This document shows positions 36,833 to 57,389 of a DNA stretch of 58,341 bases, piece by piece. The position numbers and the translations under genes are program-made. The notes beneath the pieces were generated by a model. The model saw only the letters and a list, made by a program, of their open reading frames with translations, was not told where the DNA came from and made no database searches. This stretch comes from Methanotrichaceae archaeon (lineage in GTDB: Archaea; Halobacteriota; Methanosarcinia; Methanotrichales; Methanotrichaceae), in the NCBI GenBank assembly GCA_963748825.1, contig CAVVKN010000011.1, positions 1 to 58,341 of the forward strand. The letters are read 5' to 3'. How positions within the stretch are numbered: the first letter of the stretch is position 1; every line of letters begins with the position of its first letter.

Positions 36833-37671
36833 GCGTTCACCTCGATGTAGCGCTTCATAGATTCGAATACCCTTCTGCCAGGTCCGGGCTCATCGGGCCG
36901 CTGCTTTCTCGGATCGAAGGCAGGAAGCTGCCAGGCGAAAAAGGCCCTCTCCGGGTGAGGCATCATGCCCAGGACATTTCCCTGCTCATTGCAGATGGCC
37001 GCTATGCTTTCTGTGCTGCCGTTCACATTGAATGGAAACTCGTTTATGATCCGCCCGTTCTTGTCGCAGTATCGGAAGACAACCTGACCCTCATCGTTAA
37101 GCTTTTTCATGAGGCCAGGGGTAGTAGTGACCAGATTTCCCTCGCCATGGGCGATGGGGATCTTGAGCAGCGCTCCTCTCTCGATGGCAAAAGAGCCGCC
37201 ACACCTTCTGGGAGGCGCTTCGTGCCGAAGATTTACCCAGTCGCAGTAGTAGCCCCTCCGCACAATCTTTCCCTGGGAGACCATCACGTTTTGGGCCAGG
37301 GCCATGTCCACTTTTCCACTGCCCTTTTCGCACCACTCTCTGCTCTCCTCTCCGCTGCCATTAAAGTTGCCGGGAAGAAGCCCAGTCTCCACCAGAATCT
37401 GAAATCCATTGCAGATGCCGATGATGGGCTTCCCCTTACAAGCCTCTTCTTTCAAGGCGCTCATGACCGGTTCTTTAGAGGCTATAACTCCAGCACGAAG
37501 CCGGTCCTGATAGGAGAAGCCTCCCGGTATGACAAATCCGTCAAAGCCGGACAGCTCGCCTGCAGGCCGGTTCCAGCGAAAGATTTCGCCGTCCATGCCG
37601 ACTGCTTTCACAGCCACCAGGGTCTCAAACTCGCAGTTCGTACCCGGAAACTGCAAAACTGCTATCTTCAT
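36829..37671 (-). CDS. purQ: FGAM synthase glutaminase subunit PurQ
   Basis: FPGTNCE, PGGFSYQD, GICNGFQIL, PIAHGEG, GMMPHPER. Confidence 0.96.
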   Translation of the reverse strand: MKIAVLQFPGTNCEFETLVAVKAVGMDGEIFRWNRPAGELSGFDGFVIPGGFSYQDRLRAGVIASKEPVMSALKEEACKGKPIIGICNGFQILVETGLLPGNFNGSGEESREWCEKGSGKVDMALAQNVMVSQGKIVRRGYYCDWVNLRHEAPPRRCGGSFAIERGALLKIPIAHGEGNLVTTTPGLMKKLNDEGQVVFRYCDKNGRIINEFPFNVNGSTESIAAICNEQGNVLGMMPHPERAFFAWQLPAFDPRKQRPDEPGPGRRVFESMKRYIEVNA

Positions 37672-40001: not shown

Positions 40002-40994
40002 TTCAGGTACACCTCTAGTAGCTATGCCTATCCATACGTGGTGCGTTATGAATTTATCGATCCAGGGGGAGGGAATGGGGGGAGGGAAAGGGATGAGACA
40101 CGGAAATGTACTGGCAATAATGACGAGATCAAGTTCTCTGATGGAGAGGGTTTGACGAGGTCACGGGCACGGGGATTCATGGGTACTATCACTGGATCTA
40201 CGTGAGACGTGCGGATGCGTGAGCCCGAGTAGCCAGGCGGAAGGGGGGCCAGTGGGCGCGAAAATCATAAATCATAATACGATCTAAACCAAACGGTCTT
40301 TATGGTAAATGTTGAGGATATTAAGAAGATACAGGATTTGACTAGGCAAGTTGAATCTAGCGAAGGATGGGAAATAGAGATACGAAACCAGAAATTTAGG
40401 TACAAGTTATTATATATTTACGACAAACTATAACCCGCTTAAAAATGCTCTTAAGTTTTTTAATAGTAATGATGTTATAGTCCTGCACCGAAATAATGAA
40501 ATAAATTATATACTTCTAGATTTACCCTATTTGAAAGCCTGGGACCGATGGTCAAAGGAAGGGGGAAAATATTTGAATAATGCTAAAGATAATATTACTT
40601 CGCTTGATATTATAAATGATTATGGTTCATTAGTAATTTAGTTTTATAATTGGTTCTTGATGAGACAAGAAGAATTGTGCAAAGAGGAATTTGAGCAATC
40701 TCAGAAACTCAAAGACGAATATAATAAACTTGATCTGAAAATATTTTCCCGACTTTCAAATGAGTTAAAAAAAAGTGACAACTTATATATATATATATTT
40801 GAATACGTTATATATAGGCAGAAACACACATAGCTTTACAACTTTATTCTTCTTTCCCATGCTCATCTGATTAGTATATAGAGTCAAGAGTTTGGGACTC
40901 CACATAATGATTTAAATATGAAAAGACAATAGTAGTACAGCTAAGTTAAGCCTTACTGGCAGGATCGAAGGCTTTAGGCTTGGGAGATTCTACA

Positions 40995-41621
40995 ATGTAC
41001 AAAAAAATATTTGCCGTCGTAGGAGTCCTTCTCATCTTGTGCTCTGCCACAGCATGGGCACAGAAGGAAGCCGCAACTCAAATGAGCGCTTTATCGAAAG
41101 ATATAGTATCTGCTTCCGCCATATCGAAAAATGCTGCATCAGCTTCGGCGAGCGTGAAACAACTTCAAAGCATTTATTCAGGAAACTTTTTCCTCCAGCG
41201 CATGCCTGATCTTAGAGTAACACAGGTTATTCCAGGTACGCCTTCGTTTGAAAGCAGTAGTGTGGTCAATGTTCCGCTCACAGTAACCATTAAGAACTTC
41301 GGAGCATCAACCAAGGAACGTTTCAAAATCAGTGTAGATGCCCAAGTCGATGGAGGATCGAGATATGTGAAACCCTTCACTGTTCCCCGTCAGAGTGATA
41401 TGTGGTACCCCTGGCAAAATGGTTTGGCTAGCGGGGCTGAAGTTACTTTCACTGGAAATCTACAAATAGGAACTCCTTCAGGTGATTCGCTCTCCGGCAA
41501 ATCCGCCATCATCTATGCAATCGTAGACAGTATATCTGGTGATGAGTTTGTACCAGACTCGGGGAGAGTTATGGAAAGCAATGAGGTAAACAATGAGATG
41601 ATGGCAGAAATTCAACTCTAG
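40995..41621 (+). CDS. Secreted protein with a CARDB-like Ig domain
   Basis: Signal peptide; PDLRV..VTIKNFG..YAIVDS..VMESNEVNN. Confidence 0.75.
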   Translation: MYKKIFAVVGVLLILCSATAWAQKEAATQMSALSKDIVSASAISKNAASASASVKQLQSIYSGNFFLQRMPDLRVTQVIPGTPSFESSSVVNVPLTVTIKNFGASTKERFKISVDAQVDGGSRYVKPFTVPRQSDMWYPWQNGLASGAEVTFTGNLQIGTPSGDSLSGKSAIIYAIVDSISGDEFVPDSGRVMESNEVNNEMMAEIQL

Positions 41622-41824
41622 ATTTCGAAGATTAATCTTAACCTACATTAGATAACCGTATTGAACTTAAGCCTGTAAGCGATACAGGACAGCCGACCGA
41701 GTTAACCAACTCGGTGTTCTTTCTCATTAACGAGAGAAAAAGAGGTTATCCAAGAGCGGATCTCGAGAGTCATGCATAGTCACGTTGAATCTGATGCTCC
41801 GTCCACATTTTTTTATTACTTCGG

Positions 41825-42112
41825 GAGCGCGAAGGGTCACGAATACCCCTACCTTCAGGTCGGGGATGAAGTGAACCCTCGCCCGTTTTTGGGGTTGGAA
41901 ATCTATTATGCTTAAGTGGCAAATTCCTTTGATCCGTTGGAAATATAATAAGGATTCTCAAAGGAAACCGAAGCAGAGTATCAATCGTGCAGAACAAGGG
42001 GACCTGGACAACTGAGACTTGACGATTTCTGAATTCCCGAAAACCGGGCGTGCGGGGAGTGTGGCCCGAAGCATACCCCGTCCTTTAGGGTGGGGTGGCC
42101 GTGCGTAGTTTG
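41825..42112 (+). mobile_element. Internally deleted IS200/IS605-family element (non-autonomous)
   Basis: Left hairpin CCCCTACCTTCAGGTCGGGG, right hairpin ACCCCGTCCTTTAGGGTGGGGT; remnant GKFL*SVGNI / QLRLDDF* resembling a TnpA C-terminus. Confidence 0.65.
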
Positions 42113-42137
42113 ATTTTAAAGAATACTCTTCTCAATA

Positions 42138-42221
42138 GCGGGGTTTAACTTTCCAAATTTCATTTAAAGACTTAAGATATATTCTCGCAGGAGTTCACGG
42201 GTTCGAATCCCTTTTCGGGCA
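42138..42221 (+). pseudogene. Degenerate tRNA-Leu(TAA)
   Basis: 84 nt: GCGGGGTT...AGAC-T-TAA-GA...CTCGCAGGAG (variable arm) TTCACGGG-TTCGAAT-CCC...GCA; D-arm and acceptor stem do not pair. Confidence 0.65.
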
Positions 42222-42254
42222 GTGGAAAGGTTCTGGATCTTCCCCTGGCAGATG

Positions 42255-42444
42255 TGGCCCCGAGCACCAGCTTATCGACACGCCGCCGGTGATCCAATGT
42301 CATTTTGATGGGCAATCATGCCTCCCAAACTCCCTCCGGAGATATGGCCCCGATCAACTGCAAGGGCATTCATCAGGCCAACGGTCTCCCCGATAATCTG
42401 CACAATGGTACAGGGGCCGGGCCAATCGCAGCGACCCCACCCGA
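42255..42444 (-). pseudogene. Alpha/beta hydrolase fragment abutting repeat copy 1
   Basis: GRCDWPGPCTIVQIIGETVGLMNALAVDRGHISGGSLGGMIA / RRVDKLVLGAT; GxSxGG motif. Confidence 0.65.
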
Positions 42445-42535
42445 TGCTCCGGCGCCCGTTAGCGAGCGCCGCTGCCGGGCTCCGGGCCCGTCTGGCTGCC
42501 ACCCACAGGGCTGCCGGGCCGGGAGGGCGAGCGCC
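42445..42535 (+). repeat. GC-rich cassette-separating repeat, copy 1
   Basis: TGCTCCGGCGCCCGTTAGCGAGCGCCGCTGCCGGGC...GGGAGGGCGAGCGCC. Confidence 0.95.
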
Positions 42536-42630
42536 TTCTGGTTCACTCAAGACCTGAGGGCTTGATTATTTCCAAGAATATGATTCCGAGGTAGAGTTAC
42601 GTTCTAAGGTGCAGCAAGCACTGAACATGC

Positions 42631-43620
42631 TCAATAGGCTGTGGAGGACTTGATCCGCATAAGGAGTTGGGACAACCTTGGCATCGAGTAGCTCCCAGAT
42701 ATAATATCCAGAATATACTCGAAATAGCTAACTCCTTGCTTTCTGCATGTGTCAAGGATAGTCAATTGATTCTCCCAAGCGGCCTTGCCGGATTCGCTTC
42801 GAGTTCCGTAGCTGATCTTCCTCTTGATCACGCCTTCCCGCACAGCTATCTCGGAACCGTTGTTATGTAACGGCAGCTCAGGATAGATCAGTACCTTCAG
42901 TAACCTATCCTTTCGCTTTCTCGTCGATGCTATTGTTTCATCCAGCATCACATAACCTGTTTTGGCTGTGGGCGAGAAGATGAAATCAAAGAGCCACTTA
43001 AGATATACCCCAAAACCACAATCAGGATTCTCTTTAAAATCCGCCAGCAGTTCATAATAGTGCCATAGCCGATCGATAAAACCACTCAGCAGAGTTCTAT
43101 GTTGTTCAAGAACGGGTGTTAGTTTCCTATAATGCCGTATCTCATGTATCCAGCATAGCCCCTGCTTTGAAGATATGGAATGGAATTGCTGGGCAGCATC
43201 CGAAACCATTGGCTTGTCTATTTGCTCGCCTTCTTTCAATCCGAAAATGGGTCTCAAATCATCTTTGCTTTTTCCGCCTAGAATGAAGAACGAGCCGAAC
43301 TGATCATTGCACACCACGTCCAGATAATGATTTTTCCCTGCGTGCCTGGCACCAGTATCATCTATCTGAAAGTAATCTGCGTTCTCCATACCGGTTTTGA
43401 ATATCGCATTTTTTTCGGCGGTAAATTCTTCGCGCTTCTCTTCGATCATGATGTTTGAGATCGTGCCTTCAGAGATGATGGTGCCGATGCTGCTCCAAGA
43501 TCTTCTGGATTTTGTTCTCGGTTAGCTCTTCCCAGGTTATGGAGGGTGATCGCGAAATGCTTTCAGGCGGCTTCCAAAACTGGTCCCTTGCAGATCCTTT
43601 GGAAGTTTCGCTTCGAAGAA
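42631..43620 (-). pseudogene. IS66-family transposase C-terminal part
   Basis: QIDDTGAR, LCWIHEIRHY, LPLHNNGSEIAVREGVIKRKISYGTRS, DTCRKQGVS; frameshifted upstream of 43449. Confidence 0.85.
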
Positions 43621-44791
43621 TGTTCGTCGTATACTACAGGGCAGCAGAAAAGTTATCCGAGCACGGATTGTTTTGCTGGCTGCGATTGGCAAAAATAATC
43701 GCGAAATCGCTAATGAATTAGATGTGTCCTTGGACACTGCTCGATTATGGCGGCAACGATGGCTGGACTTGCAGCCGATTTCTTTGGACGATCTGAGTGT
43801 TGAAGAACGCTTGGATGACCTGCCAAGACCCGGAGCACCACCTCGTTTAACTGCAAACCAGATTTGTCAGATCCAACAGCTGGCTTGTGAGAAACCTGCT
43901 GAATCTGGACGTCCAATTAGCCAATGGACAAGCCGTGAGATTGCAGCTGAAATAATGAAGCGGGGCATTGTAGATACGATTTCAGCTCGTCATTCTGCCA
44001 GGATTTAAAAAAAGGTCTCCAACCACACGATTCGCTACTGGCTAACACCTGCGCCGGACGAACGGTTTGACGAAAAGGTAGACGACATCAATTCATTGTA
44101 CCAACAAGCCCAGAATTTAGCTCAAAAAGGTGAAGTTGTAATGAGCATCGATGAAATGACGGGGGTTCAAGCTCTCGAACGCAAACACCCTGGATTGCCA
44201 ATGGCACCAGGAAAAGTGGAACGAAGAGAGTTTGAGTACGTCAGGCATGGAACTCAATCATTCATCGTGAGCTTTGCGGTAGCCAGCGGACGGATTGACA
44301 CCATTTCTTGCGGCGATACGCGCAATGAAGATGACTTCGTATCGCATATCAAGGAGGTGGTTGAAAGCTCTTTATCCGCATCCCGCTGGCACTTTGTCGC
44401 TGACAACCTCAATATCCATAAATCAGAATCCCTCGTGAGGTATGTGGCCGATATATCCGAGTTGGACATAGACTTAGGAATCAAAGGCAAAAGCGGTGTT
44501 TTGCAGTCGATCGAGACTCGTGAATCATTCTTGACCGATCCATCCCACTCTATCGTCTTTCACTACACGCCGATACACGCTTCTTGGATGAACCAAGTTG
44601 AAATATGGTTTAGCATCTTAGTCCGGAAGCTGCTCAGGCGAGCCTCCTTTGCTTCCATCAATGATTTGAAAGCAAAGGTTTTGGCGTTTGTCGAGTACTT
44701 CAACCAAACAATGGCAAAGCCGTTCAAATGGACATATCGAGGGAGAGCACTTGCTGCCTAAAATTAGGCTTATTTAAGCCCAGCTGTACTA
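43621..44791 (+). mobile_element. IS630-family element lacking its left end; two-ORF transposase (43673-44008, 44096-44761)
   Basis: DLPRPGAPP HTH, A7 slippery site near 44007, [35 protein letters not shown]; right TIR TTATTTAAGCCCAGCTGTACTA. Confidence 0.88.
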
Positions 44792-44999
44792 GATGCTTTA
44801 GATCAAGATGGTCGGCATTCAAGTGCGATACGTCCTGCTCTATACTTCCATCCACATATCTATGTTAGATACTATTACTATTTATAATTTTACTATATTG
44901 GCTTGGTTTAAATCTATATCCACATGATATTGAGCATGTTCCAAGCACTTCTGATATGTTGGACATTGATTCAATCTATTGCAAAAAAATTTATAGACT

Positions 45000-46511
45000 T
45001 TAGGGTCTAACATAAATCCGTCTTGTGGTTGTATTCTCAATGTCATTGCTATCTTGAACTGTAAATTTTATGAGGTATTCTCCCGGATTTTCAATCACTT
45101 CTCGGATCTTGCTTGTGTTGATATTCGAACTCGCTGGGGAACCGGAATAGAGGAGAAGTTGATTGGCATACCAATTAAAGGATTTTACTTTGCTACTGGG
45201 GCAAAGAAAAGCACTTCCCTTAAAATTGATTCCCTGACCTACTCTGGGGTTTTCCGAAATATTTTCTATCTTAGCAACAGGACACTGAGATACCTCAATA
45301 TTTATTTCAGATATGCTTGTACCGGCTTCATTTGATGCCATTAGAATATATTTCTCGGTGGACAGTGGTGAGATAGGTTGCGACCCTTCCATATCCACCC
45401 TCATTCCATTAAGTGTAGTATTGTAGGGATCAGCACCGCTAATTTTCCAATTCAAATTTGCGGATTCGCCTCTAGTAATCTTTTTCTTATCCGGCCAGAA
45501 GTCCAAATGAGGCTTTTGAATCAGCACAGTCAAATTCGATATAGAAGAATTCGTTCCATAATCGTTTATTGCGATCAATCTGTATGTCGTGTTTCTGTTG
45601 GGGCTGACTTGCAAACTTCCTGCGTCCTTAAGAGTTTCGGAAGTGATTGCAGGTTCTATCCGTATTGTATCGACATTGTTTACATGCCAGCTCAAAACTG
45701 CAGAATCGCCATCACTTTTAATTCTATTTGGTTCTACCTTGAATTCGACTATCTCGGGCTTTCGTGAAATAATCGTCACCGTAACACTACTCTCGTTATA
45801 TTTCCATCCAAAGTTGTTAGCTACTAATGTATAAATCGTGTCATCTAGTATAGGTATTGTTTTTGTTCCAATAGAAATATTTTTCTCATTTGCTTGTAAC
45901 TCACACACATTTGGCCGGATTGAAATAGTATTAACGTTAGAGACATTCCACTGCAAAGTGACACTATCGCCCAGATTGACTTGATTTCTGCTAGTATTAA
46001 ATTCATTTATTCTTGGAACGGATTTTGTGGTGAAGGTCCAGATTGGTCCAGATGTGGTCTTGTCTCTGTTGTTCTTAGCCTCAATCCTCCAGTAATATTT
46101 AGTGTTAGGATTCAAAGATTTCTCAAGAGGACATCGGATCTCTTTATAAGAGTTCGTAAAATTTATTGGATCTAATTTGGTCCAATTGCCACCTTCAGGC
46201 CTTAGAAAGACCTGATAATTGATGGTGAGAGCATCAATTTTAATTGGATTCTTGGATCCAATAGAGATAAGGAATTTGTTAAGCACTGATTCATTATTCT
46301 CCCCGAACCAGGATAAAGTTAAGGGATAAGAAATATCTAGGGTTCCATTGGGTGGAAATTTTAATTCTGGATTTGATGGCGAAGGGGTTACAGATTGAAT
46401 TATTAAGAAAAGAAACGCCAAACCTAGTACACTAACAAACACTAACAGGTTTTTATTTGTGATAATATTACTTAATATATTTCCTTGCATTTTGGTTTCA
46501 TCTTTTTCCAT
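45000..46511 (-). CDS. N-terminally anchored surface protein with FN3-like and repeated Ig-like domains
   Basis: TM near the N-terminus; LNPNTKYYWRIEAKN..GPIWTFTT; three repeats of S..L.W.V.N...TY.L.A.N..G; AT-rich. Confidence 0.8.
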   Translation of the reverse strand: MEKDETKMQGNILSNIITNKNLLVFVSVLGLAFLFLIIQSVTPSPSNPELKFPPNGTLDISYPLTLSWFGENNESVLNKFLISIGSKNPIKIDALTINYQVFLRPEGGNWTKLDPINFTNSYKEIRCPLEKSLNPNTKYYWRIEAKNNRDKTTSGPIWTFTTKSVPRINEFNTSRNQVNLGDSVTLQWNVSNVNTISIRPNVCELQANEKNISIGTKTIPILDDTIYTLVANNFGWKYNESSVTVTIISRKPEIVEFKVEPNRIKSDGDSAVLSWHVNNVDTIRIEPAITSETLKDAGSLQVSPNRNTTYRLIAINDYGTNSSISNLTVLIQKPHLDFWPDKKKITRGESANLNWKISGADPYNTTLNGMRVDMEGSQPISPLSTEKYILMASNEAGTSISEINIEVSQCPVAKIENISENPRVGQGINFKGSAFLCPSSKVKSFNWYANQLLLYSGSPASSNINTSKIREVIENPGEYLIKFTVQDSNDIENTTTRRIYVRP

Positions 46512-46740
46512 ATCTATTACTCCTGCCGGAATGCATTTTTATATATTATTTTATAGTACCAATTAATTACTAGACAAATATACTAGTTTAAGGCACAAGT
46601 TGTATATATATCTTAACTTGGCTACTTAGGGATTAATTCTCGTTCTCTTTTTAATTTTTCATTATCCTTTGAATCGATCTGCAGTAAATGATACATGGCA
46701 GTCTTGCTATTGCTTACTTGACCTCTAGCTTCCTCCTGCG

Positions 46741-46831
46741 TGCTCCCGCGCCCGTGAGCGAGCGCCGCTGCCGGGCTCTCGGCCCGCCTGGCGGCCACCC
46801 ACAGGGCTGCCGGGCCGGGAGGGCGAGCGCC
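46741..46831 (+). repeat. GC-rich cassette-separating repeat, copy 2
   Basis: TGCTCCCGCGCCCGTGAGCGAGCGCCGCTGCCGGGC...GGGAGGGCGAGCGCC. Confidence 0.95.
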
Positions 46832-46918
46832 TCGTGGCCCTCCTAAGGGAAGGGAGAGCTTGCAGTCTCATGCGTCATTTTAAGCCGACGAAATGGAAAT
46901 CAAAGGAAGTTTGCGCGT

Positions 46919-47017
46919 CTCTGCGTCCTCTGCGTCTCTGCGGTTAATAATCGTAGCTGAATAATTTAACTCTGAGGTTTACGGGAATAAAACCGCAGAG
47001 TCGCAGAGAGCACAGAG
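46919..47017. repeat. 27-bp inverted repeat built from CTCTGCG units
   Basis: CTCTGCGTCCTCTGCGTCTCTGCGGTT (46919-46945) versus AACCGCAGAGTCGCAGAGAGCACAGAG (46991-47017). Confidence 0.85.
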
Positions 47018-47196
47018 GACGAACGAACGGAGAACGGAGAACTACCAATCGGCAGTTTTCTCAAGGCGGAAATCAATAAGGGTGTGGCAAGAATTGTCAT
47101 TCTTTCATCGAAACTTCGCGGCTTCGCGCCTTCGCGTGAACCCGGATCTCGGGCAAGGCTGCGAAGAAGCCATGATCGCTGCGCTCCGCACCAACG

Positions 47197-47287
47197 TGCC
47201 CCTGCGCCCGTGAGCGAGTGCCGCAGCCGGGCACCTGGCCCGCCTGGCCGCCACCCGCAGGGCTGCCGGGCCGGGAGGGCGAGCACC
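47197..47287 (+). repeat. GC-rich cassette-separating repeat, copy 3
   Basis: TGCCCCTGCGCCCGTGAGCGAGTGCCGCAGCCGGGC...GGGAGGGCGAGCACC. Confidence 0.95.
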
Positions 47288-47337
47288 TCAAGATACTCAA
47301 GGCAGAAAGAATCTACAATGGCACAAGGATTTGATTT

Positions 47338-47730
47338 CTATTTTAACTCTGGTATCTTGCGTCCTTTTTCAGTGCGATCAAAATCTGCATCAAAGCTCAT
47401 TATCTGCAGGCCATACTTCTGTGCGACGGCATATTGGTAGGAATCATCAAAATCCAAACGGAACCTTTTCGAGACTTCTGCCATAGCGAGAATCTCTTCC
47501 GGATCTAACCCGATCACAGTTATTCCTGTCTTTATTATTACGTCCTTCACGAAGCTGTCGTAGGTCTCATGTCTGTTTCTTTGGAAAAGGAAAACCCCAA
47601 TGGAATGAAGTGAGAAATCCGTTATAAAAAGATCTGAGGAGGGGTTTGCGATAAATAGATGCTTGGCAGCCTTGCTCTTCTCTCGCTGCAGCAAGATCTC
47701 CAAAAATATATTCGTGTCCAGGAGGTACAT
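47338..47730 (-). CDS. vapC: PIN-domain (VapC-like) toxin
   Basis: YLLDTNIFLE, LDFDDSYQY, IMSFDADFD. Confidence 0.9.
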   Translation of the reverse strand: MYLLDTNIFLEILLQREKSKAAKHLFIANPSSDLFITDFSLHSIGVFLFQRNRHETYDSFVKDVIIKTGITVIGLDPEEILAMAEVSKRFRLDFDDSYQYAVAQKYGLQIMSFDADFDRTEKGRKIPELK

Positions 47731-47936
47731 TAGGCTCCTCGCATCTTTCCAATCTCGTGCTGGAGTTCCACAGAGGAATACTGCTCTCCCAGATCTGCGA
47801 GAGCTCCTTCCCAGTCAAAAGTCGGCACCTTTTGCTTCTTTTTAGATCTTTTCTCCAGCAAAAATTCTGCATAGCTAATAACTTCTTTTTGAATGTCAAG
47901 AGGCAATTGCTCAACGAACCTAGCGAGGGTTGTCAT
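47730..47936 (-). CDS. DUF2281-type putative antitoxin
   Basis: LP.DIQKEVISYAEFLLEK...FDWEGAL...SSVELQHEI; stop/start overlap with the PIN gene. Confidence 0.85.
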   Translation of the reverse strand: MTTLARFVEQLPLDIQKEVISYAEFLLEKRSKKKQKVPTFDWEGALADLGEQYSSVELQHEIGKMRGA

Positions 47937-48032
47937 TTTTATCTTTCAAATATAGGATGCCTAAGCTTTAATATTTATCGGCAAGGATGATTTCTCCTAA
48001 TTTAACTTAGTTTTTCCTGACGTTCTCACGCG

Positions 48033-48133
48033 TGCTCCCGCGCCCGTGAGCGAGCGCTGCTGCCGGGCACCCGGGCCCGCCTGGCCGCCTGGCCGCCACC
48101 CCGCAGGGCTGCCAGGCCGGGAGGGCGAGCGCC
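48033..48133 (+). repeat. GC-rich cassette-separating repeat, copy 4 (internal GCCTGGCC duplication)
   Basis: TGCTCCCGCGCCCGTGAGCGAGCG...GCCTGGCCGCCTGGCCGCC...GGGAGGGCGAGCGCC. Confidence 0.95.
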
Positions 48134-48188
48134 CGCGGGCTCCAGAAGAATTAAATGGGCTTGCGGAAACTTTGGCAAGCTGGAAGTG

Positions 48189-48446
48189 CTAAGTAGAGGC
48201 ACTCAGCTTCAGCTCAACTTCTCCAGCCCTCAGAGGCTTGGTCAGAAGTCTTCCGGCGCGAAATTCTCTCATGATTTCATCTATCTTTCTAGAAGTTTCG
48301 ATTGAGAAATAGGCCTCACTGCAGCTATCGCAAACGTAGGCCGGCACATCCTTTATTACTATTATCTCACCATCGACTCTGACCGTGAAATCGGTTGTGC
48401 CCTTCTTGAGCCTCCCTTTTCCGCAACTACAGGTGTCAGGAATCAT
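48189..48446 (-). CDS. YgiT-type (MqsA-like) zinc-finger putative antitoxin
   Basis: CSCG...IIVIKDVPAYVCDSCSEAYF; ATGA overlap with the upstream gene. Confidence 0.85.
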   Translation of the reverse strand: MIPDTCSCGKGRLKKGTTDFTVRVDGEIIVIKDVPAYVCDSCSEAYFSIETSRKIDEIMREFRAGRLLTKPLRAGEVELKLSAST

Positions 48447-48760
48447 TTTAGCACTCTCTCTTTGCAATTTATCCATCCATCTTCGTCCGGCAGATATACA
48501 GTCACAACTCTCAGATAATCCAGGCACTTAGCCACAACGACATGACACGGTTTTCCTGGCAGCAACCCAAACATGAGCACCGAGGGGCACGGGAAATCGT
48601 CTGGATAACTCTCTATTATCTCGCCATTTAATATTAAGTTTACGATATCATCGGCCAAAACGTCTCTTTCCACCATCCTGGCATTGGCGTGTTTGGAGAT
48701 GATAATTTTGTCTTCCCAGACAAGCTTCTTTATCTCTTCAATAAGTCCAGAGGAAGACAT
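48443..48760 (-). CDS. DUF4258 putative toxin (RelE/BECR-like fold)
   Basis: SKHANARMVER..GEIIESYPDDFPCPSVL..HVVV..VVTVYLPD..W. Confidence 0.85.
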   Translation of the reverse strand: MSSSGLIEEIKKLVWEDKIIISKHANARMVERDVLADDIVNLILNGEIIESYPDDFPCPSVLMFGLLPGKPCHVVVAKCLDYLRVVTVYLPDEDGWINCKERVLK

Positions 48761-48883
48761 CTGACACCTGCCTTTTTAGTTCAGATCTGGCTTTCCAGAG
48801 AAAAAGATTGCGGGCAGCGGCTACTCTCTTTTGGCATAAATATCGCTCCACTGCCCGACCGTGCTCCTTCGCATCTGTCAGAG

Positions 48884-48977
48884 TGCTCCCGCGCCCGTGA
48901 GCGAGCGGCAGCTTCCGGGCACCCGGGCCCGCCTGGCCGCCACCCCGCAGGGCTGCCAGGCCGGGAGGGCGAGCGCC
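48884..48977 (+). repeat. GC-rich cassette-separating repeat, copy 5
   Basis: TGCTCCCGCGCCCGTGAGCGAGCGG...GCCAGGCCGGGAGGGCGAGCGCC. Confidence 0.95.
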
Positions 48978-49071
48978 CGCAGGCTCATCTAAGACTGGAG
49001 CGCTTGCAGTTGCTCCAAGATTTGTCGGCAGCAAAAACCAAATTGGAAATTATTAATATTAATATAAAAAT

Positions 49072-49248
49072 CTATTTAATGCCACGTCGCTTGATGTATT
49101 CATCCAAGCTGATGAAATCACCCTTCTCACGCTCGATGAGTGCATGAAGTTCCTCTACGGTTGATTCATCTTCTTCCTCAAGGGCGGCAAAATCCATGTC
49201 TTTAAAGGGCTCATCATTTGCTGCTATGACTTTGCTTCGAGCTGCCAT
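49072..49248 (-). CDS. Small acidic putative antitoxin (58 aa, missing from the ORF track)
   Basis: AGGAGA RBS; MAARSKVIAANDEPFKDMDFAALEEEDESTVEELHALIEREKGDFISLDEYIKRRGIK. Confidence 0.75.
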   Translation of the reverse strand: MAARSKVIAANDEPFKDMDFAALEEEDESTVEELHALIEREKGDFISLDEYIKRRGIK

Positions 49249-49280
49249 TGGATAATCATCTCCTTTATTAGTATATTGCT

Positions 49281-49553
49281 TTATCTGTAACCCGATTTTC
49301 TTTTCTTTTGGAATATTTTTATAATATTTATAACTCTTTCTGAATCACACACTTCGTATTCTACTCGAAGCTTTCCTACCCTCAGCCGATACAATGTCTC
49401 ACTGCCTTCCACGGGCACGATATCTGCTAATGGGCGAGGCCGGTAGGGATTGCTCTTAATCTCTTCAAGATGGGCAACGATCTTTTTTACGGCATGGCCC
49501 GGAAGCTTATCTAAAGCTTTTTGCGATGTTCGTGATAGCTGTAGCGTGAACAT
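49281..49553 (-). CDS. relE: RelE/ParE-family toxin
   Basis: MFTLQLSRTSQKALDKL..NPY..LYRLRVGKLRVEY; upstream TTTATA box. Confidence 0.88.
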   Translation of the reverse strand: MFTLQLSRTSQKALDKLPGHAVKKIVAHLEEIKSNPYRPRPLADIVPVEGSETLYRLRVGKLRVEYEVCDSERVINIIKIFQKKRKSGYR

Positions 49554-49624
49554 TCTTATTCCAGCTCTTAATCTTTCTAGATTGATATAAAGAGTCTTGG
49601 CTTTTGGGCTTGGGCTATTTGGCA

Positions 49625-49718
49625 CTTTTGCCCAGCAATCTGCAAGAGCCTCCTATCAGGCCGGCGGTATCCCTGGCCATCCGCTCAATGGTGCCCGGGG
49701 CCGGGCTGATCGCAGCGA
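49625..49718 (-). pseudogene. Alpha/beta hydrolase fragment abutting repeat copy 6
   Basis: GRCDQPGP / TIERMARDTAGLI; DNA shares AATGGT..GGGGCCGGGC..ATCGCAGCGACC with 42404-42436. Confidence 0.6.
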
Positions 49719-49786
49719 CCGCTGCCGGACTCCCGGGCCCGCCTGGCCGCCACCCACAGGGCTGCCGGGCTGGGATGGCGAGCGCC
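49719..49786 (+). repeat. GC-rich cassette-separating repeat, copy 6 (5'-truncated)
   Basis: CCGCTGCCGGACTCCCGGGCCCGCCTGGCCGCCACCCACAGGGCTGCCGGGCTGGGATGGCGAGCGCC. Confidence 0.9.
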
Positions 49787-49879
49787 AGCTGGCTAACTCG
49801 AGGCCGGAGAGCTTCATGATTTTCAAGATTGGGATTCTGAGATAAAGTTATATCTTCTGGCGTTGCATGAACTTCTGAT

Positions 49880-50122
49880 ATGTTCTGCGAGTACATCCAA
49901 GCTGCGATCTCTAAGGCGGTCTATGAAGTCATAGATGATGAAGAGCCTTATTACGGCGAAGTGCCCGAATTGAAAGGCGTTTGGGCAACCGGTAAAACTC
50001 CTGAAGAGTGTCGCGAGAATTTGAGGATGGCCATAGAGGACTGGATTGCTTTTAGTCTGCGATTCAATTTACCAATCCCGGTGATTGAAGGTCAGACCAT
50101 AAAAGCACCAGCCGAGGCCTAA
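49880..50122 (+). CDS. hicB: HicB-family antitoxin
   Basis: YYGEVPELKGVWATGKTPEECRENLRMAIEDWI..LPIP. Confidence 0.9.
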   Translation: MFCEYIQAAISKAVYEVIDDEEPYYGEVPELKGVWATGKTPEECRENLRMAIEDWIAFSLRFNLPIPVIEGQTIKAPAEA

Positions 50123-50125
50123 GGC

Positions 50126-50347
50126 ATGTCAAGGTTATGCCCGGTTTCTTGGAATGAGCTGGTAAGAAAACTGCATGCCCTCGGATTCGATGGCCCTTAC
50201 ACAGGCAAAGGGCCACATCCCTTGATGTGGAAAGGAACGATCCGGGTGATGATCCCAAATCCTCATAGAGCTGATGTTAGCGTTGACCTGGTAAAGAAGA
50301 TCCTGAGACAAGGAGAGATTAGCAGAGAAGAATGGCTTTCAGCCTAG
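50126..50347 (+). CDS. hicA: HicA-family toxin
   Basis: ELVRKLHALGFDGPY..GPH...IPNPH..DVSVDLVKKILRQ..ISREEW. Confidence 0.9.
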   Translation: MSRLCPVSWNELVRKLHALGFDGPYTGKGPHPLMWKGTIRVMIPNPHRADVSVDLVKKILRQGEISREEWLSA

Positions 50348-50427
50348 CGAAAAAAGCTGCCCAAAATTCGTCACATCCTGTCTTCCTGCCCGCATGCTTC
50401 GAGCCCTCTTGCCGCCGCCCGCCTGCA

Positions 50428-50519
50428 TGCTCCTGCGCCCGTGAGCGAGGGGCCGCAGCCGGGCACCGGGCCCGCCTGGCCGCCACCCACTTGGCTGCCT
50501 GGCCGGGAGGGCGAGCGCC
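50428..50519 (+). repeat. GC-rich cassette-separating repeat, copy 7
   Basis: TGCTCCTGCGCCCGTGAGCGAGGGG...GGCCGGGAGGGCGAGCGCC. Confidence 0.95.
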
Positions 50520-50633
50520 TCAAGCTCAACTGGGTTTACATGAGACCTTGCCGAAAACGAAAAGAGCGATGCTTTTTGCAACTGTGCAAACTCTTGCGCA
50601 GATAGTTATTTATCATAATAATGGGTAAAATGG

Positions 50634-50906
50634 GTGGAGATAAATATGCCGCTCGCAAAAATCGATGAACGAGGCAGAGTACAACTGCCAAGCCGTCTCC
50701 GGCAAAAGATGAAGCTCAAAGAAGGAGATGAATTCGTAGCGGAAGATCTGGGAGAGGATACGATTGTCCTCAAGAAGATCAACCTGCGGGCACTTCTGGA
50801 GGATGCTATTGAAAAGGCTAAGTCGGTAGACCTGGATAAGCTGGAAAAAGAGATCGAAGAGGAGAGCAATCAGCTTGCCCGACAGAAGTTCAAGATATCT
50901 GCTTGA
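50634..50906 (+). CDS. AbrB/MazE/SpoVT-family antitoxin
   Basis: KIDERGRVQLPSRLRQKMKLKEGD; true start probably ATG 50646. Confidence 0.88.
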   Translation: MEINMPLAKIDERGRVQLPSRLRQKMKLKEGDEFVAEDLGEDTIVLKKINLRALLEDAIEKAKSVDLDKLEKEIEEESNQLARQKFKISA

Positions 50907-50967
50907 TAATACCGTCTTCATAGCCTTAAATTCGATTAGAAGGTCGAGGGCAAGCGGCAGTCGATAG
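50875..50967 (+). pseudogene. Truncated PIN (VapC) toxin N-terminus
   Basis: MPDRSSRYLLDNTVFIA overlapping the AbrB stop, then early TAG. Confidence 0.6.
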
Positions 50968-51571
50968 TGGTGTTGAAGAGCCATCCCGCCGATGTCGCCC
51001 GCCACGATTCACATGGCCCCCTGGTGGAGCAGATGCTCGGCCCTGCAAACAGCTCCCCGAAAGTCGGCATGCCTCACGAGAAGACCGCCCTGCAACGGCC
51101 AGATCGAGGCCAAGGACGTGCAGATAGACGCATGGCAATGAGTTCATATCCTTCCAGCTACTTGCTAAGGTTAATAATTAGGTGTCGAATTTTTGCGGCA
51201 TCGTTGTAGGCAAACATGAAAACAAACTTGGATATGGCCACATCACGGCGCAAAGAGCTTTTGGAGCTTATTGCGTCCGCGTCCGATGAAATCGCGGCAA
51301 TAGATCGCTGTTTACCAATTCTGTATAGTCAAGCCCTAGAGGCCGATCTTCTCCAGAGCAAAGAAAAGCGCTAGCTCAAACTCACTAGCCCCCTCGCGTA
51401 ATTAAGCCCTGGTGATCATAAGATGGCCGCTGTCGAAGAAATCAATTACAGCGAGGCGGCATATGTTGATTACCAATACGAGTATTTGCAGAAGCATAAA
51501 TTAGAAGGGATCACATTAGAGGAATTGCGGTGCACAAGCCTTGTAATCAGAATAAGTCAAGATAGTTAAAA

Positions 51572-53109
51572 CCTTAACTCCGGTTTTTAGGGAATAAATT
51601 AAATCCTAATTTTGCGTCAAGCGTCTCTAATTTTCTAGGTATCTCTGAAATTATATTGCAGTCATTTAATTCTACTAAGTACACCTTGCTCAGATCAAGC
51701 AGGATGTCTTTTGGAGATTGCTTTCTTAAAAGGTCAGCTTTTTTCAGAGCCACCTCAATCTTTGTGTATGCATATAATGATAAAAACGAGATAAAAATAT
51801 GCCCGAAGACACTTTCATTATCCTGCAAATAGAGAATGTCTGCTTGAAGAGCATTTTTGTAGGTATCGAAAAGCTTCTCGATTCGGTCTCTACTTTTATA
51901 TTGCATAAATATAGTATTCTCGTCTAAATCGAGATTAGACACTATCAGGATCTTTCCAGCACGCTTCTGCGCCTCACTAAGTTTATTGGCGTCGATTTTT
52001 CCCTCGTCTAGTTTTTGATAGAGCGTGATGTTTTCTTCAAGCATTAATTGTTGGTCTTCGTATAAATAAAGAAAAATGTCCTCAATTTTTCCTTTTCCGC
52101 ATTTTATCAATCTATCCTGATAAAATAGGTGATTATTCAGACCTATATCTGTCCCATAAAGTAGACTGTTTCTTCTGGCAGGCAAAATGAAGCTCATTTT
52201 CTTTTCTAGCAGGAATTTAATGGCATCCTTCGAAAAGAAACCTCTATCCAATATGATCGTCGATCCTTCTTTATTGGCTTCAACGATGCTGTTATAGAGA
52301 CTCTTTATGTCGCGAACGCTTCCTGGTATCGTTCTAATCAAAGTGGGCAAGCCTGTCTCCAGAGAGCAAAACAGCGCGATATTTATTTGAGGAATGTGGA
52401 TCTTGTTCTTGTTATAGCCAAACTCTGCAAAATTTATTGATGACTTGGTCAACACAGTGCTCAAATCATACACGAGATCTTTGTCCTTTTCAGATAGGGC
52501 TCTAAAAACGGAATCCTGTGCTTGACTGTCTATTCCAACAGCTTTCAACACATGGCTTAAGTTCTTTGCATCCAAATTTGGATTTATCTTTTGAACATTA
52601 TATATTTTATCCCAGGCAGAATGAACTCGTTTCAATGGCATATAGCCAGATGCTCGCGTTATCGCTAGAGCATAGATTTCTTCCCACTCATCTTTGAAAG
52701 CATCCTCAAGGCATGACCTCATATCGGTAAGAATACGGTCAAATAGCATTGCGTTACCATACTCTTTTATGCCTCGAAGATTTTTCGCGGTTACCGATCG
52801 CTTAACTCCCTCAATAAGCCCTTTAGTGCGATCCAGATTGCCGATATAATCGGAATCTTTTATTCGTTTTTTGAGTTGCTTATCCCAGTGTGTCGTTGAA
52901 TGATAGACATAATGATGGTTACTTATATATTTAATTTCTAGTCCTTTCTTTCCCATTTTTCTTTGTTCAATCAGCCATAATTTTGCCCATTCGTCCATGT
53001 ATGGTATATTAGGGAATACATATATTTATAGATTTCCATTGAAATAATTTACAAGAGGTTAAAAATTTAAAATAATATCAAATTTAAGCCCTAAATCGCG
53101 GAGTTAAGG
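51572..53109 (-). mobile_element. IS1634-family insertion sequence, apparently intact
   Basis: TIRs CCTTAACTCCGGTTTTTAGGG / CCTTAACTCCGCGATTTAGGG; 6-bp TSD TTAAAA (51566-51571, 53110-53115). Confidence 0.88.
51574..52998 (-). CDS. IS1634-family DDE transposase
   Basis: VYDLST, FGYNK, PGSVRD, ILDRGF, YKSRDRIEKLFDTYK. Confidence 0.88.
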   Translation of the reverse strand: MDEWAKLWLIEQRKMGKKGLEIKYISNHHYVYHSTTHWDKQLKKRIKDSDYIGNLDRTKGLIEGVKRSVTAKNLRGIKEYGNAMLFDRILTDMRSCLEDAFKDEWEEIYALAITRASGYMPLKRVHSAWDKIYNVQKINPNLDAKNLSHVLKAVGIDSQAQDSVFRALSEKDKDLVYDLSTVLTKSSINFAEFGYNKNKIHIPQINIALFCSLETGLPTLIRTIPGSVRDIKSLYNSIVEANKEGSTIILDRGFFSKDAIKFLLEKKMSFILPARRNSLLYGTDIGLNNHLFYQDRLIKCGKGKIEDIFLYLYEDQQLMLEENITLYQKLDEGKIDANKLSEAQKRAGKILIVSNLDLDENTIFMQYKSRDRIEKLFDTYKNALQADILYLQDNESVFGHIFISFLSLYAYTKIEVALKKADLLRKQSPKDILLDLSKVYLVELNDCNIISEIPRKLETLDAKLGFNLFPKNRS

Positions 53110-53171: not shown

Positions 53172-56100
53172 ATGCTGGTCTTACACTCCATCTGGGACAC
53201 GGAAACATTCTACATCTGGGCCGAATCTTCAGCTCTGCCCCTCTCCACCGACGGCAAATCAGATCGCCGCAAGAAACAGCATCCACAGTCTCATCCCTTC
53301 GCCCTGCCTGGCATAGAGCTCAAAGACCTCCTTTCTGAGACCTTCCCCTGGAGCGGCGACGGCTGCCGGGTGGAAGAGCTGACTCTCCGTCTTCCCTCCG
53401 GAAAATCCGGACCTCTTCCCTCCCCCTGGCTTTTGCGGGAGGACTACCTATCTGAAAAACCATCTCTACTGGGCGCCTACGCCGTCCCGGCCCTGGGTCT
53501 CGCGCCCGGCTCCGCCCTCGATCTTCTCCTGGACATGCCCACTCGCCCTCCCCAGGGCACAGCTTATGCCGACTCCATACTCTTCTGGTCACAGCTCGCC
53601 CTCTTTTCTCTGGAGCTTGTATCCCGGGAGCAGTTTGTGCCCGCCATCCGGAAAAGCAGAGCCCTCTGGAAGGCGGTGATCGACGAACCGGACCAAGAGC
53701 GGCTGAATATTTTCATCCGGTCCCTGCCGCCCAGCTGTCTTGGCCTGTCGCCCCTGCTACCCCAGGAGGCAGCGATGGCCCCCCCATCCCGGCTGGTCCA
53801 CAGCTTCGTGAACAGCGCTGTGGACGCACTTGTGCGCAGCAGCCTGGATGGGGGGGTCAGCCTCCTGCCTGCCCGGCGGGGCAGAAGGCCCAAGATCGTC
53901 CCTCTGCCGATTCAATTCCTGGCGGCCCTCACCAGCAAAGAGGCCGGCCTGTCTGCCTCTGCCCCGGAGCTGGTCTCCTTCTCTCTAAAGATGGATTCCT
54001 GGACAGCACAAATCCATCCGAAAATTGAGGACGTGCCATTTCGCACCTGCTTTCGCCTGGAAGCCCCCGGCGTTGAAGATGATGATGATGCCTGGTGTCT
54101 CGCTTTCTTCCTTCAAGCCAAAGATGACAAAAGCCTGATTGTTCCGGCAAAAGAGGTATGGCAGACCAAATCTCGCGCCCTTACCTTCCTCAAGAAGAGG
54201 CTGAAAAATCCACAGGAGCAGCTCCTGGCCGACCTTGGCAAAGCATCTCGGGTCGTTCCTCTGATGGAGAAGTGCCTGGAGAGCGCCCGCCCCACCGGCC
54301 TGGAGATGCAAACCGAGGAGGCCTACTCCTTCCTGCGGGAGTCTGCTCCCCTCCTGGAGCAGAATGGCTTCGGGGTACTGCTGCCTTCCTGGTGGGAGCG
54401 CCCCGGTTCGCGCCTGGGAATAAAGCTTCAGCTCAAAGGTGCGGTAAAAAAAGAGGGCCAGGTCGGCTCGGCCTTCTTCGGGCTCGACACCCTGGTCAAC
54501 TACGACTGGCAGCTCTCCCTGGGCGGCGATATCCTCACTGAGTCCGAGTTCGCCGAGCTGTCCCGCCTCAAGGTCCCCCTCATCCAGATCAGGGGCGAGT
54601 GGATGGAGCTTCGCTCCACAGAGATCGAGGCGGCGATCGAGTTCTTCCGGAAGAACCGGGATCGAGAGATGACAATGGCTGAGGCACTTCGCCTTGGCCT
54701 GAACCTGCCCGGCCAGAGCTTGCCAGGCCAGGAGCTGCTCGGTGTCGATTCATCCCTACCCGTTCTCGGCGTTCAGGCGGAGGGCCAGATCGAGCAGATG
54801 CTCAAAGCCTTGTCCAATCCAGGCAATCTGGAGGATGTTTCGCCTCCTCAAGAGTTTCAGGGCACATTGCGCCCTTACCAGCTGCGGGGCGTCTCCTGGC
54901 TGGAGTACCTGCACCGGATAGGTCTGGGTGCCTGTCTGGCAGACGACATGGGCCTGGGAAAGACCGTGGAGCTGATCGCTTTTCTCCTGCGTGAACGAGA
55001 GCATGAAGGAGAGACTGGAAAGGAAAATGAACCGGCTAAAGAAGAATGTAGGGCCAAAGGCCCCCTCCAGCCTGCTCTTCTCATCTGCCCCATGTCCGTG
55101 GCCGGCAACTGGCAAAAGGAGCTGGAGCGTTTTGCCCCCAGTCTCCGGGTCCTGGTGCATCACGGCCAAAATAGGCTCACGGGTCCCGGCTTCCAACAGG
55201 AGGCTACAGGCAAAGACGTTGTAATCACCACTTACGCTCTCGCCCAGAGGGATGAGGAGCATCTGTCTGCCGTCTCCTGGAGCCATGTAATCCTGGATGA
55301 GGCCCAGAACATCAAGAACCAGGCCGCCCGGCAGACCCAGTCCATAAAACGGCTCCGGTCAGGGCAGAAGATCGCCCTCACCGGAACCCCTGTCGAGAAC
55401 AGGCTCTCCGAGCTATGGTCCATCATGGACTTTCTCAATCCCGGCTACCTGGGATCCGCTGCATCCTTCCGCAAAAATTTTGTGCTGCCAATTGAAAAAT
55501 ACAAAAACAAGAGCAGCTCCGAGGCTCTGCGCTCCATAATTCAGCCCTTTATCTTGCGGCGGCTCAAGACCGATCCAACCGTTATCCAGGATCTGCCCGA
55601 GAAGATGGAGATGCGGGTCAACTACAGCCTCACTGCTGAGCAGGCATCGCTTTATGCCGCCGTGGTCGAGGAGATGCTGGGCCGCATAGAATCGATGGAC
55701 GGCATAGAGCGCAGAGGTCAGATTCTGGCCGCTCTGACCAAGCTAAAACAGATCTGCAACCATCCCGCCCTCTTCCTGCAGGATGGAAGCGCCCTGTCAG
55801 GCCGCTCAGGAAAGCTCTCCCGCCTGGAGGAGATGCTCTATGAGGTCCTGGCCGGTGGCGATAGAGCCTTGATCTTCACCCAGTTTGCCGGAATGGGGGC
55901 CATGCTCAGACACCATCTCCAGGAGAAGCTGGGAGTCGAGGCCCTGTTCCTGCACGGAGGAACCTCCCGAAAGCAGAGGGATGATATGATCCAGAGGTTC
56001 CAGGCGGGTGGATCGCCAATCTTCATACTCTCTTTAAAGGCGGGTGGCTTCGGCCTCAACCTGACCGCAGCGAGCCATGTCTTTCACTTTGATCGATGGT

Positions 56101-57247: not shown

Positions 57248-57389
57248 TTTTTTATCCATACAAACCGCTCTCTTCACTAGCCACCGAGCAGACTATAAAT
57301 AGTTTGGAAACATATCTCCATCTTGCAACTTGCATATTATCGAACTTATCGAACACAAAGACAATTATCGAACTAAAGGAGAGTGTGAT

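Follow-up and report, generated by a model that had tools for sequence, protein, structure and literature searches.

Here we describe an array of toxin-antitoxin (TA) modules, parted by copies of one GC-rich repeat, in a Methanotrichaceae archaeon (NCBI assembly GCA_963748825.1). The window, by which we mean the whole stretch of DNA analysed, is contig CAVVKN010000011.1 at its full length of 58,341 nucleotides (contig C11 of a 25-contig, 2.88-Mb assembly), and it carries seven repeat copies with a small gene module in each interval (Table 1). In comparison with related arrays, whole modules appear to have been deleted, added, copied and rearranged by way of an exchange zone inside the repeat, and on this sequence evidence the array behaves like an integron cassette array, though without an integron recombination site or an integrase. 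With moderate confidence in the two statements jointly, we regard the locus as a sedentary array of modules on the chromosome, restricted to one part of the genus Methanothrix, and host homologous recombination as its explanation. An earlier reading of the window, hereafter the original prediction, had described an "integron-like architecture with a non-attC repeat" that formed a cassette-capture platform; the architecture stands, whereas a platform with its own recombinase is not shown.

Repeat search, MAFFT alignment, BLAST and a profile hidden Markov model concordantly recovered the seven copies in the window, all on the plus strand, and the start points given in the original prediction fall within them. 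A maximum-sensitivity nhmmer search of the 2.88-Mb assembly returned these seven array copies and one further copy on contig C13 (E <= 9e-21), with the next match at E = 0.027; the repeat is thus absent from the rest of the 58 kb, as first reported, and is not dispersed in this genome. The length of ~90 bp proposed earlier was too short: in the conserved unit of ~100-125 nt, a core of 63 nt is preceded by a left arm of ~35 nt and followed by a right arm that is weakly conserved and reaches ~60 nt at most. Across species the core shows 85-95% conservation, a level comparable to that of coding DNA, and the arms and spacers diverge. It holds an imperfect 13-bp dyad around a 7-8-nt spacer, and 10-mer direct sub-repeats ~41 nt apart can be read from the alignments of the repeat. 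Some copies have untidy internal deletions between short sub-repeats; partial copies were considered as crossover markers and rejected, being deletions of this kind. A canonical G-quadruplex motif is present on the plus strand of the core in three of the seven window copies and in 33 of 128 copies overall (dinucleotide shuffles, 0.7%), and we dropped it as the defining function of the repeat, as its frequency is far above that of shuffles yet it is not a conserved property.

The place where modules change neighbours was estimated from the repeat copies and the sequences that flank them. When the PIN module was aligned from seven genomes, homology began just past the core of the left repeat and stopped before the next repeat. 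Among 46 copies labelled by neighbour, the left arm was of one type ("variant B") whenever the left neighbour was of the non-coding E type described below, regardless of the right one, and the sequence past the core tracked the right neighbour module. A column-wise association profile of 151 copies, given in coordinates of the second window copy, tracked the left module as far as ~46768 and, from ~46832 onwards, the right one, with the 63-nt core in between tracking neither. These comparisons show the 63-nt core, together with a standard left arm, as the putative zone of neighbour-module exchange.

A natural rearrangement of this kind can be seen in two metagenome contigs, L074 (the same as L068) and L078, in which the two flanks are 100% and 99.1% identical. 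L078 holds 1466 nt extra between two repeats, comprising an E-like module and an intact AbrB-PIN pair, and L074 has a single hybrid repeat in its place, the crossover of which falls within 10 nt at the core's 3' end. Breakpoints at a fixed position of the repeat had been anticipated; exchange does map to the repeat, with this one crossover placed within 10 nt, whereas the zone as a whole spans ~63-100 nt. Contigs of four independent metagenome studies also carry window-like modules (>=90% likeness) in other orders, with the switches inside repeats (junctions in Table 1); none of the public sequencing runs held more than 0.25 of the sampled words.

Open reading frames (ORFs) were extracted and clustered from 111 inter-repeat intervals, some of them on duplicate contigs, and yielded ~15 recurring module types of ~0.3-1 kb (median interval 641 nt). 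Most are type II TA operons, namely DUF2281-PIN (11 intervals), AbrB-PIN (7), HicBA (6), RelE with a 58-aa partner (5), DUF4258 with an MqsA-like partner (5), AF2212-PIN (4) and a second HicAB type (2). The others include a module of an acylphosphatase and a coiled-coil protein (13), a DUF433 protein (2), a 295-aa protein of no named type (2) and the E module, which fills 35 of the 111 intervals. E modules (e.g., L034:1201-2404, minus strand) contain several heptad iterations and an AT-rich, TATA-like stretch; a peptide product was considered and rejected, and E is treated as non-coding because its ORFs shift frame between copies. Scans by e-value against Rfam, covering window positions 40000-53000 and a canonical E module (L034:1-2700), gave chance-level matches only.

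Orientation relative to the repeat was single in 26 of 26 multi-member ORF clusters, and exactly one repeat stands between any two modules, whichever way their genes point. Order differs from genome to genome. The window reads IS/Ig, E, PIN, YgiT-type, RelE, Hic, AbrB, and three relatives read Hic, Hic, RelE, PIN (G059), PIN, YgiT, AbrB (G017) and PIN, E, AF2212-PIN, Acyl (G036). The 49 adjacencies of 26 distinct arrays comprise 26 different typed neighbour pairs, a count that includes a slight duplication from two overlapping entries of one contig (L048 and L049). Clustered arrays of variable content and order were what the original prediction had expected of relatives, and they are present in 25 of 59 genomes. 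The outcomes it had set against itself (a genome-wide scatter in the manner of a miniature inverted-repeat transposable element (MITE), a fixed module order, a canonical attC motif) did not occur.

The module genes of the window had been named from sequence alone, and Pfam confirms the named TA pairs and the IS66 and IS630 insertion sequences (ISs), with matches above cut-off for PIN, DUF2281, DUF4258, ParE/RelE, UPF0150, HicA and MazE/AbrB; the MqsA-like protein fell just under its cut-off and the 58-aa partner of RelE has no family. Related modules recur elsewhere. The DUF2281-PIN module is 87-95% identical in six other genomes, where its neighbours are different, the DUF4258-MqsA-like module is also present in G033 and G017, the ParE/RelE and 58-aa pair is kept in G059, and the same genome holds two copies of the HicB-HicA module. 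The true start of the ParE/RelE ORF is probably an internal ATG. An AbrB-PIN fragment had been placed after the last copy, and the array is indeed truncated inside an AbrB-PIN module past R7, with the PIN gene cut after 17 codons.

Two other modules were less well described. The supposed Ig-like surface gene is a membrane-anchored 503-aa ORF with sub-threshold I-set/BatD matches only. Its module is listed as private to the window genome; positions 45170-46437 were uncovered in four metagenome runs, although missing cover proves nothing. Beside it, the nested IS66-family and IS630 insertions look like recently active elements, because copies on contigs C6, C22, C18, C2 and C13 are 94-99% identical. 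In the interval that had been called an empty inverted-repeat module, an inverted repeat is present, but it is an ordinary dispersed element of ~130 nt, with copies on at least 13 other contigs and unrelated to the array repeat, and it lies inside a degenerate E module (the interval, 46857-47188, is homologous to E modules of other arrays). AT-rich, TATA-like strings upstream of the operons were seen by eye, and a strict motif matched at the 503-aa gene only; the leaders described in the original prediction are plausible.

The repeat appears confined to one archaeal lineage. In a collection with one genome per prokaryotic species, the exact core motif matched 13 stretches, all 13 titled Methanothrix, Methanotrichaceae or Methanosarcinales; a metagenome scan added 20 stretches, and scans of collections of viral contigs, plasmids and phages gave no match. 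The repeat was found in 11 of 61 genomes of a family sample (including the window's own) and in 9 of 15 other members of the genus, and, with the whole genus Methanothrix searched at E <= 1e-5, in 25 of 59 species genomes and 13 of 30 high-quality genomes. Two genomes (G101 and G095) were negative at this threshold, yet a broader profile detects diverged repeats at the same site. Copies were clustered and co-oriented in every locus examined, with maxima of 13 per genome and of 10 in 7.4 kb (metagenome contigs), and solitary copies off the main cluster were present in three relatives (G059:C23, G033:C50 and G042:C12).

The site of the cluster is marked by a gene for a 777-aa protein, orthologues of which (87-96% identity) are present in 54 of the 59 genus genomes. 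This anchor is presumably a housekeeping gene for a PurL/FGAM-synthase-like protein, a name we take from reading its sequence alone; the Pfam families AIRS and AIRS_C appear in the tally of flanking genes. Of the 25 repeat-bearing genomes, 11 have the cluster and the anchor on one contig, 2-6 kb apart, with equal relative orientation in all 11. The cluster lies elsewhere in two genomes (on another contig in G042, and 88 kb from the anchor in G045), and in the remaining 12 contig breaks hide its position relative to the anchor. No array stands at the anchor site in G049, G051 and G057. The genes between the anchor and the first repeat, and those past the last repeat, vary among genomes and are rich in defence-type genes. 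Three of the arrays examined run into a contig end, and contigs of metagenome-assembled genomes break inside several arrays, so the locus is easily missed. We found neither the repeat nor a Methanothrix TA cassette array of non-integron type described in the literature, although the supplementary tables of PMC9668308, on archaeal genomes with attC clusters, might bear on it.

The repeat is not an attC site, as had been stated at the outset. A search of 42001-51200 on both strands found not one RYYYAAC...GTTRRRY pair, and the seven copies share no conserved GTT or AAC. Single-stranded folds of three copies, on both strands, reached z-scores of -1.2 to +0.3 against dinucleotide shuffles, and a central hairpin with 13 stem pairs had no double compensatory change among 127 distinct copies (RNAalifold among the methods), its variants mostly breaking pairs. 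By ARAGORN the repeat is not a piece of a tRNA gene, and the single tRNA-Leu fragment of the window lies outside the repeats. Neither terminal inverted repeats nor target-site duplications were visible in alignments of 7 and 46 copies, in which target-site duplications were not formally tested.

A consistently linked recombinase, which the original prediction had expected, was likewise not found. The window proteins include no integrase, as it had noted, and the array intervals contain no integrase or replication genes. In the window's own assembly (94.9% complete), the general tyrosine-recombinase model PF00589, which is not IntI-specific, gave only a 40-bit partial and a 26-bit sub-threshold match, the serine-recombinase model PF00239 gave none, and the Y1 gene is a pseudogene. 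In the complete genome G036, ~450 kb separate the array from the nearest PF00589 match. Among five array-bearing genomes, serine recombinases are present in one and Y1/HUH enzymes in four, including the pseudogene of the window's genome. At 30 loci, the ORFs of >=170 aa that lie no more than 8 kb from a repeat number 212 and fell into 174 clusters; only three of the clusters recur in more than two loci, namely the acylphosphatase module, the 777-aa anchor and the anchor's neighbour. A Pfam tally of 144 representatives of the flank clusters held no site-specific recombinase among its 25 commonest families, the last of which had 2 members; DDE transposases of ISs accounted for 4, and the six longest proteins were left out of the tally.

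Our preferred reading, which we hold to be about evenly poised between right and wrong, is that host homologous recombination is the engine of module shuffling, loss and duplication. Once duplicate contigs were removed, leaving 128 copies, the variants in the core's left half (reference positions 88-98) associate with the host genome (z of 4-9) and with neither neighbour, and in copies with a standard arm the arm is no more than weakly module-specific (z <= 3.8). This tracking of the host genome rather than the neighbouring modules favours homologous recombination or gene conversion, and the variants are a probable case of concerted evolution, as gene conversion and unequal exchange within one array would leave behind. 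Together with the untidy internal deletions and with the lack of both a conserved structure and a linked enzyme, it is why we judge homologous recombination the likelier explanation. The host machinery for homologous recombination and gene conversion would act on the repeats with no dedicated integrase; unequal crossing-over between repeats would delete or duplicate modules, and circles cut out of the array, or imported array DNA, could integrate at any repeat. The payoff would be a stock of TA modules that reshuffles inside a variable region rich in defence genes.

Several points weigh against homologous recombination. It cannot explain about a dozen unrelated modules between the same repeat with their orientation fixed. 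The conservation of the core beside diverged arms and spacers suggests a sequence-specific function, such as a protein-binding site, and the 13-bp dyad with its 7-8-nt spacer resembles a tyrosine-recombinase core site. The partner repeats in the L074/L078 exchange share only ~50 nt of imperfect homology and make a poor substrate for homologous exchange. Shared descent, not conversion, could partly lie behind the genome association of core variants. The junctions in public runs are supporting evidence only, because assembled Logan contigs may be chimeric at repeats.

Alternatively, the double-stranded ~63-bp core, with no folded attC, would be the site of an unlinked site-specific recombinase, either a host enzyme of XerA type or one of an unknown class, and this explanation is possible though doubtful. 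Such an enzyme would excise modules as circles and re-insert them at other repeats, capturing and reordering TA and other small modules at a fixed chromosomal site, so that the array would belong to a new class of gene-cassette platform, an independently evolved functional analogue of the integron in archaea. The integron-like anatomy and dynamics, the strictly fixed module orientation, the dyad within a conserved core and the 10-nt crossover between such imperfectly homologous repeats all speak for it, and it would account for the first capture of modules. The C13 repeat beside an intact hydrolase gene looks like a single relocated cassette, and at the array edge there is an att-like tRNA-Leu fragment, with an integrase element at tRNA-Leu beside a TA and repeat island in G045 (both described below). 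However, no recombinase is linked to any of the 30 loci, as judged from the 25 commonest flank families and the recurrent clusters, and the window's own assembly offers just two weak or partial PF00589 matches, no PF00239 match and a Y1 pseudogene. The association profiles place the exchange in a broad zone and show no switch of position finer than ~63 nt; the core variants track the genome and not the module, and scans of viral contigs, plasmids and phages did not find the repeat. The repeat could instead be primarily a cis-acting element that each module needs, be it an insulator or terminator, a small RNA gene, or a sequence bound by a regulator or a nucleoid protein, with recombination as a by-product. 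The single repeat between any two modules in either gene orientation, the coding-like conservation and the sub-repeats ~41 nt apart as candidate protein-binding sites fit this idea, which we nevertheless find improbable, given no Rfam family match, folding no better than shuffles, a hairpin with no compensatory changes in 127 distinct copies, an apparent lack of the T-run usual in archaeal terminators, and paralogous TA pairs elsewhere in the genome (C14, C25) that have no repeat.

Two further explanations fare worse. An ordinary MITE or a repeat like the repetitive extragenic palindromic elements that happens to be locally dense, or an accretion of tandem integrative elements at one att site, could leave a few solitary copies off the main cluster (C13 and the three relatives named above) and a tRNA-Leu fragment at the array edge. 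It is very unlikely here, with seven of eight copies in 2.88 Mb in one co-oriented cluster and relatives alike, no terminal inverted repeats visible in the alignments, a repeat that is not a tRNA piece and intervals that hold neither integrase nor replication genes. The least credible of all is a remnant of a canonical integron, that is, a cluster of attC sites lacking an integrase (CALIN) as in other archaea. Co-oriented sites of attC-like length do part short, TA-rich cassettes at a fixed chromosomal site, but there are no paired RYYYAAC...GTTRRRY boxes on either strand of the array, sequence and not structure is conserved, and no IntI emerged from the PF00589 scan or the flank tally. Methanothrix is also not named in the main text of the survey of archaeal integrons (PMC9668308).

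At the left edge of the array, the 3' half of a tRNA-Leu(CAA) gene occurs out of place; it matches positions 33-79 of the intact tRNA-Leu at C5:30061-30147 with 94% identity, and ARAGORN found no complete tRNA in the window. In G045, whose genome is complete, a near-full tRNA-Leu (L043:6563-6637) stands between an element with a tyrosine integrase and a D5 primase and a defence/TA island with diverged repeats. This arrangement hints at an old link with an integration hotspot and does not identify the enzyme. In the same genome, ORFs like RNase HII and the RnlA toxin adjoin a DUF2281-PIN module (L043:8043-10081). Next to the tRNA fragment in the window, the remnant of an alpha/beta-hydrolase pseudogene ends where R1 begins and is 59% identical (tblastn) to the intact gene at C13:5860-6720. 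Hydrolase remnants cut at residue ~79 also abut repeats in G059, G017 and G036 at least, and at R6 of the window, which shows that units of a junction plus its repeat were copied inside arrays. The solitary C13 repeat lies 100 nt past the 3' end of the intact hydrolase gene and thus resembles one complete "hydrolase module". Further out on the left, an element of ~310 nt at 41810-42120, on which Rfam is silent, has 70-90% identical copies on C18, C5, C13 (two), C23 (two), C9 and C10. To the right, past the transposase that follows the truncated array end, positions 53172-58085 encode PspA/IM30, a SWIM zinc-finger protein and an SNF2 helicase that carries DUF3670; the last two may together form a defence-type module.

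Table 1 Features of the repeat-delimited module array (window coordinates unless a contig is named)
Feature	Position	Strand	Basis or remark
Repeat R1	42437-42563	+	
Repeat R2	46733-46856	+	63-nt core 46769-46831, core defined by association profile
Repeat R3	47189-47312	+	
Repeat R4	48025-48160	+	9-nt internal duplication
Repeat R5	48876-49000	+	
Repeat R6	49696-49815	+	diverged left arm, replaced by sequence of hydrolase-remnant type
Repeat R7, last copy	50420-50545	+	
Solitary repeat copy	C13:6821-6950	-	nhmmer
G-quadruplex motifs in cores	42508-42527, 46804-46823, 47260-47279	+	
IS66-family fragment (ORF)	42631-43449	-	PF03050; within nested insertions 42623-44943
IS630 (helix-turn-helix and DDE_3)	43621-44799		PF13565, PF13358; interrupts IS66-family fragment
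503-aa membrane-anchored ORF	45000-46511	-	I-set/BatD matches below Pfam cut-offs
Dispersed inverted-repeat (MITE-like) element, ~130 nt	46903-47035		inside degenerate non-coding E module
PIN toxin, partner of DUF2281	47338-47730	-	PF01850, 6.3e-16
DUF2281 antitoxin	47730-47936	-	PF10047, 4.3e-15
MqsA/YgiT-like zinc-ribbon partner	48189-48527	-	PF15731, 28.6 bits, just under cut-off 30
DUF4258	48443-48760	-	PF14076, 1.8e-22
58-aa partner of ParE/RelE	49072-49248	-	matches no family
ParE/RelE toxin	49281-49625	-	PF05016, 9.8e-8
HicB-like UPF0150	49880-50122	+	PF21748, 1.9e-31
HicA	50126-50347	+	PF07927, 2.2e-6
AbrB/MazE antitoxin	50634-50906	+	PF04014
PIN toxin start, first 17 codons only	50875-50925	+	tblastn with intact 146-aa PIN partner from other arrays
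Junction in public-run contigs	50524->47296		Hic to PIN
Junction in public-run contigs	48887->47201->46851		YgiT to E
Junction in public-run contigs	48935->47296		YgiT to PIN
Junction in public-run contigs	50477->49754		Hic to Hic
777-aa housekeeping gene, locus anchor	37668-40001	-	
Displaced 3' half of tRNA-Leu(CAA) gene	42168-42214	+	array left edge
Alpha/beta-hydrolase pseudogene remnant	42199-42442	-	residues ~79-161; ends where R1 begins
IS4-type DDE transposase	51574-52998	-	PF01609, 3.4e-16; just past truncated array end

Methanothrix species rank with the most important methane producers that use acetate in sediments, wetlands and digesters, and we know of no genetic system for the genus. 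A lineage-wide locus that swaps self-contained modules via one conserved repeat would be a natural gene-exchange site, which could serve for strain typing and possibly for targeted insertion. For the biology of mobile elements, it would also provide a clean example of population dynamics like those of integrons, with neither attC nor IntI. If homologous recombination alone maintains such a cassette array, this bears on how integrons may have begun, and if it does not act alone, a new recombination system awaits discovery. The concentration of eight or more TA families in a defence-rich variable region makes a role of TA arrays in archaeal defence against viruses and plasmids testable.

Among known systems, the ~120-bp VCR (Vibrio cholerae repeat) attC sites of the Vibrio superintegron are repeats of similar length. 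In archaea, according to Ghaly et al. 2022 (PMC9668308), CALINs make up most of the integrons, and no annotated cassette function is commoner there than TA genes (10.5%). Sedentary integrons and CALINs, the archaeal ones of that study included, share several traits with the Methanothrix array: they occupy a fixed place on the chromosome, their co-oriented repeats measure ~100 nt and resemble one another closely within a lineage, their cassettes are short, with many TA pairs that have their own promoters and lie in either gene orientation, and content and order vary among relatives drawing on a common lineage-level cassette pool. The Methanothrix array differs from them in having no R''/R' boxes, conserved fold, IntI or attI/Pc end, and in its repeat variants, which track the genome and not the cassette, and its broad exchange zone. 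The Xer-dependent dif modules of Acinetobacter plasmids (PMC13141974, PMC6449649) are accessory modules, TA pairs among them, that are bounded by short recombination sites and shuffled between replicons, and in this they resemble the discrete, TA-bearing modules described here. No linked integrase is expected for dif modules, because their recombinase is a host housekeeping enzyme encoded elsewhere; however, dif sites are 28-bp XerC/XerD sites of alternating orientation on plasmids, whereas the Methanothrix repeat is ~100 nt long, GC-rich, co-oriented and chromosomal. No 11-6-11 dif-like site was identified in the repeat, the dif sequence of Methanothrix not being known to this analysis.

The intergenic mosaic elements and minimal mobile elements of Neisseria are driven by homologous recombination, with arrays of short intergenic repeats as the substrates of homologous exchange and of the uptake of foreign alleles, and with concerted evolution of these repeats. 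Unlike the repeat described here, the Neisseria repeats are dispersed at many loci and delimit no single ordered array of self-contained TA modules. By Pfam, the module contents are ordinary members of type II TA families (PIN/VapC with DUF2281, AbrB or AF2212; HicAB; RelE/ParE; DUF4258-MqsA-like; DUF433), and only their packaging between a common repeat is unusual. We rank sedentary integrons and CALINs as the closest known kind, with the dif modules of Acinetobacter next.

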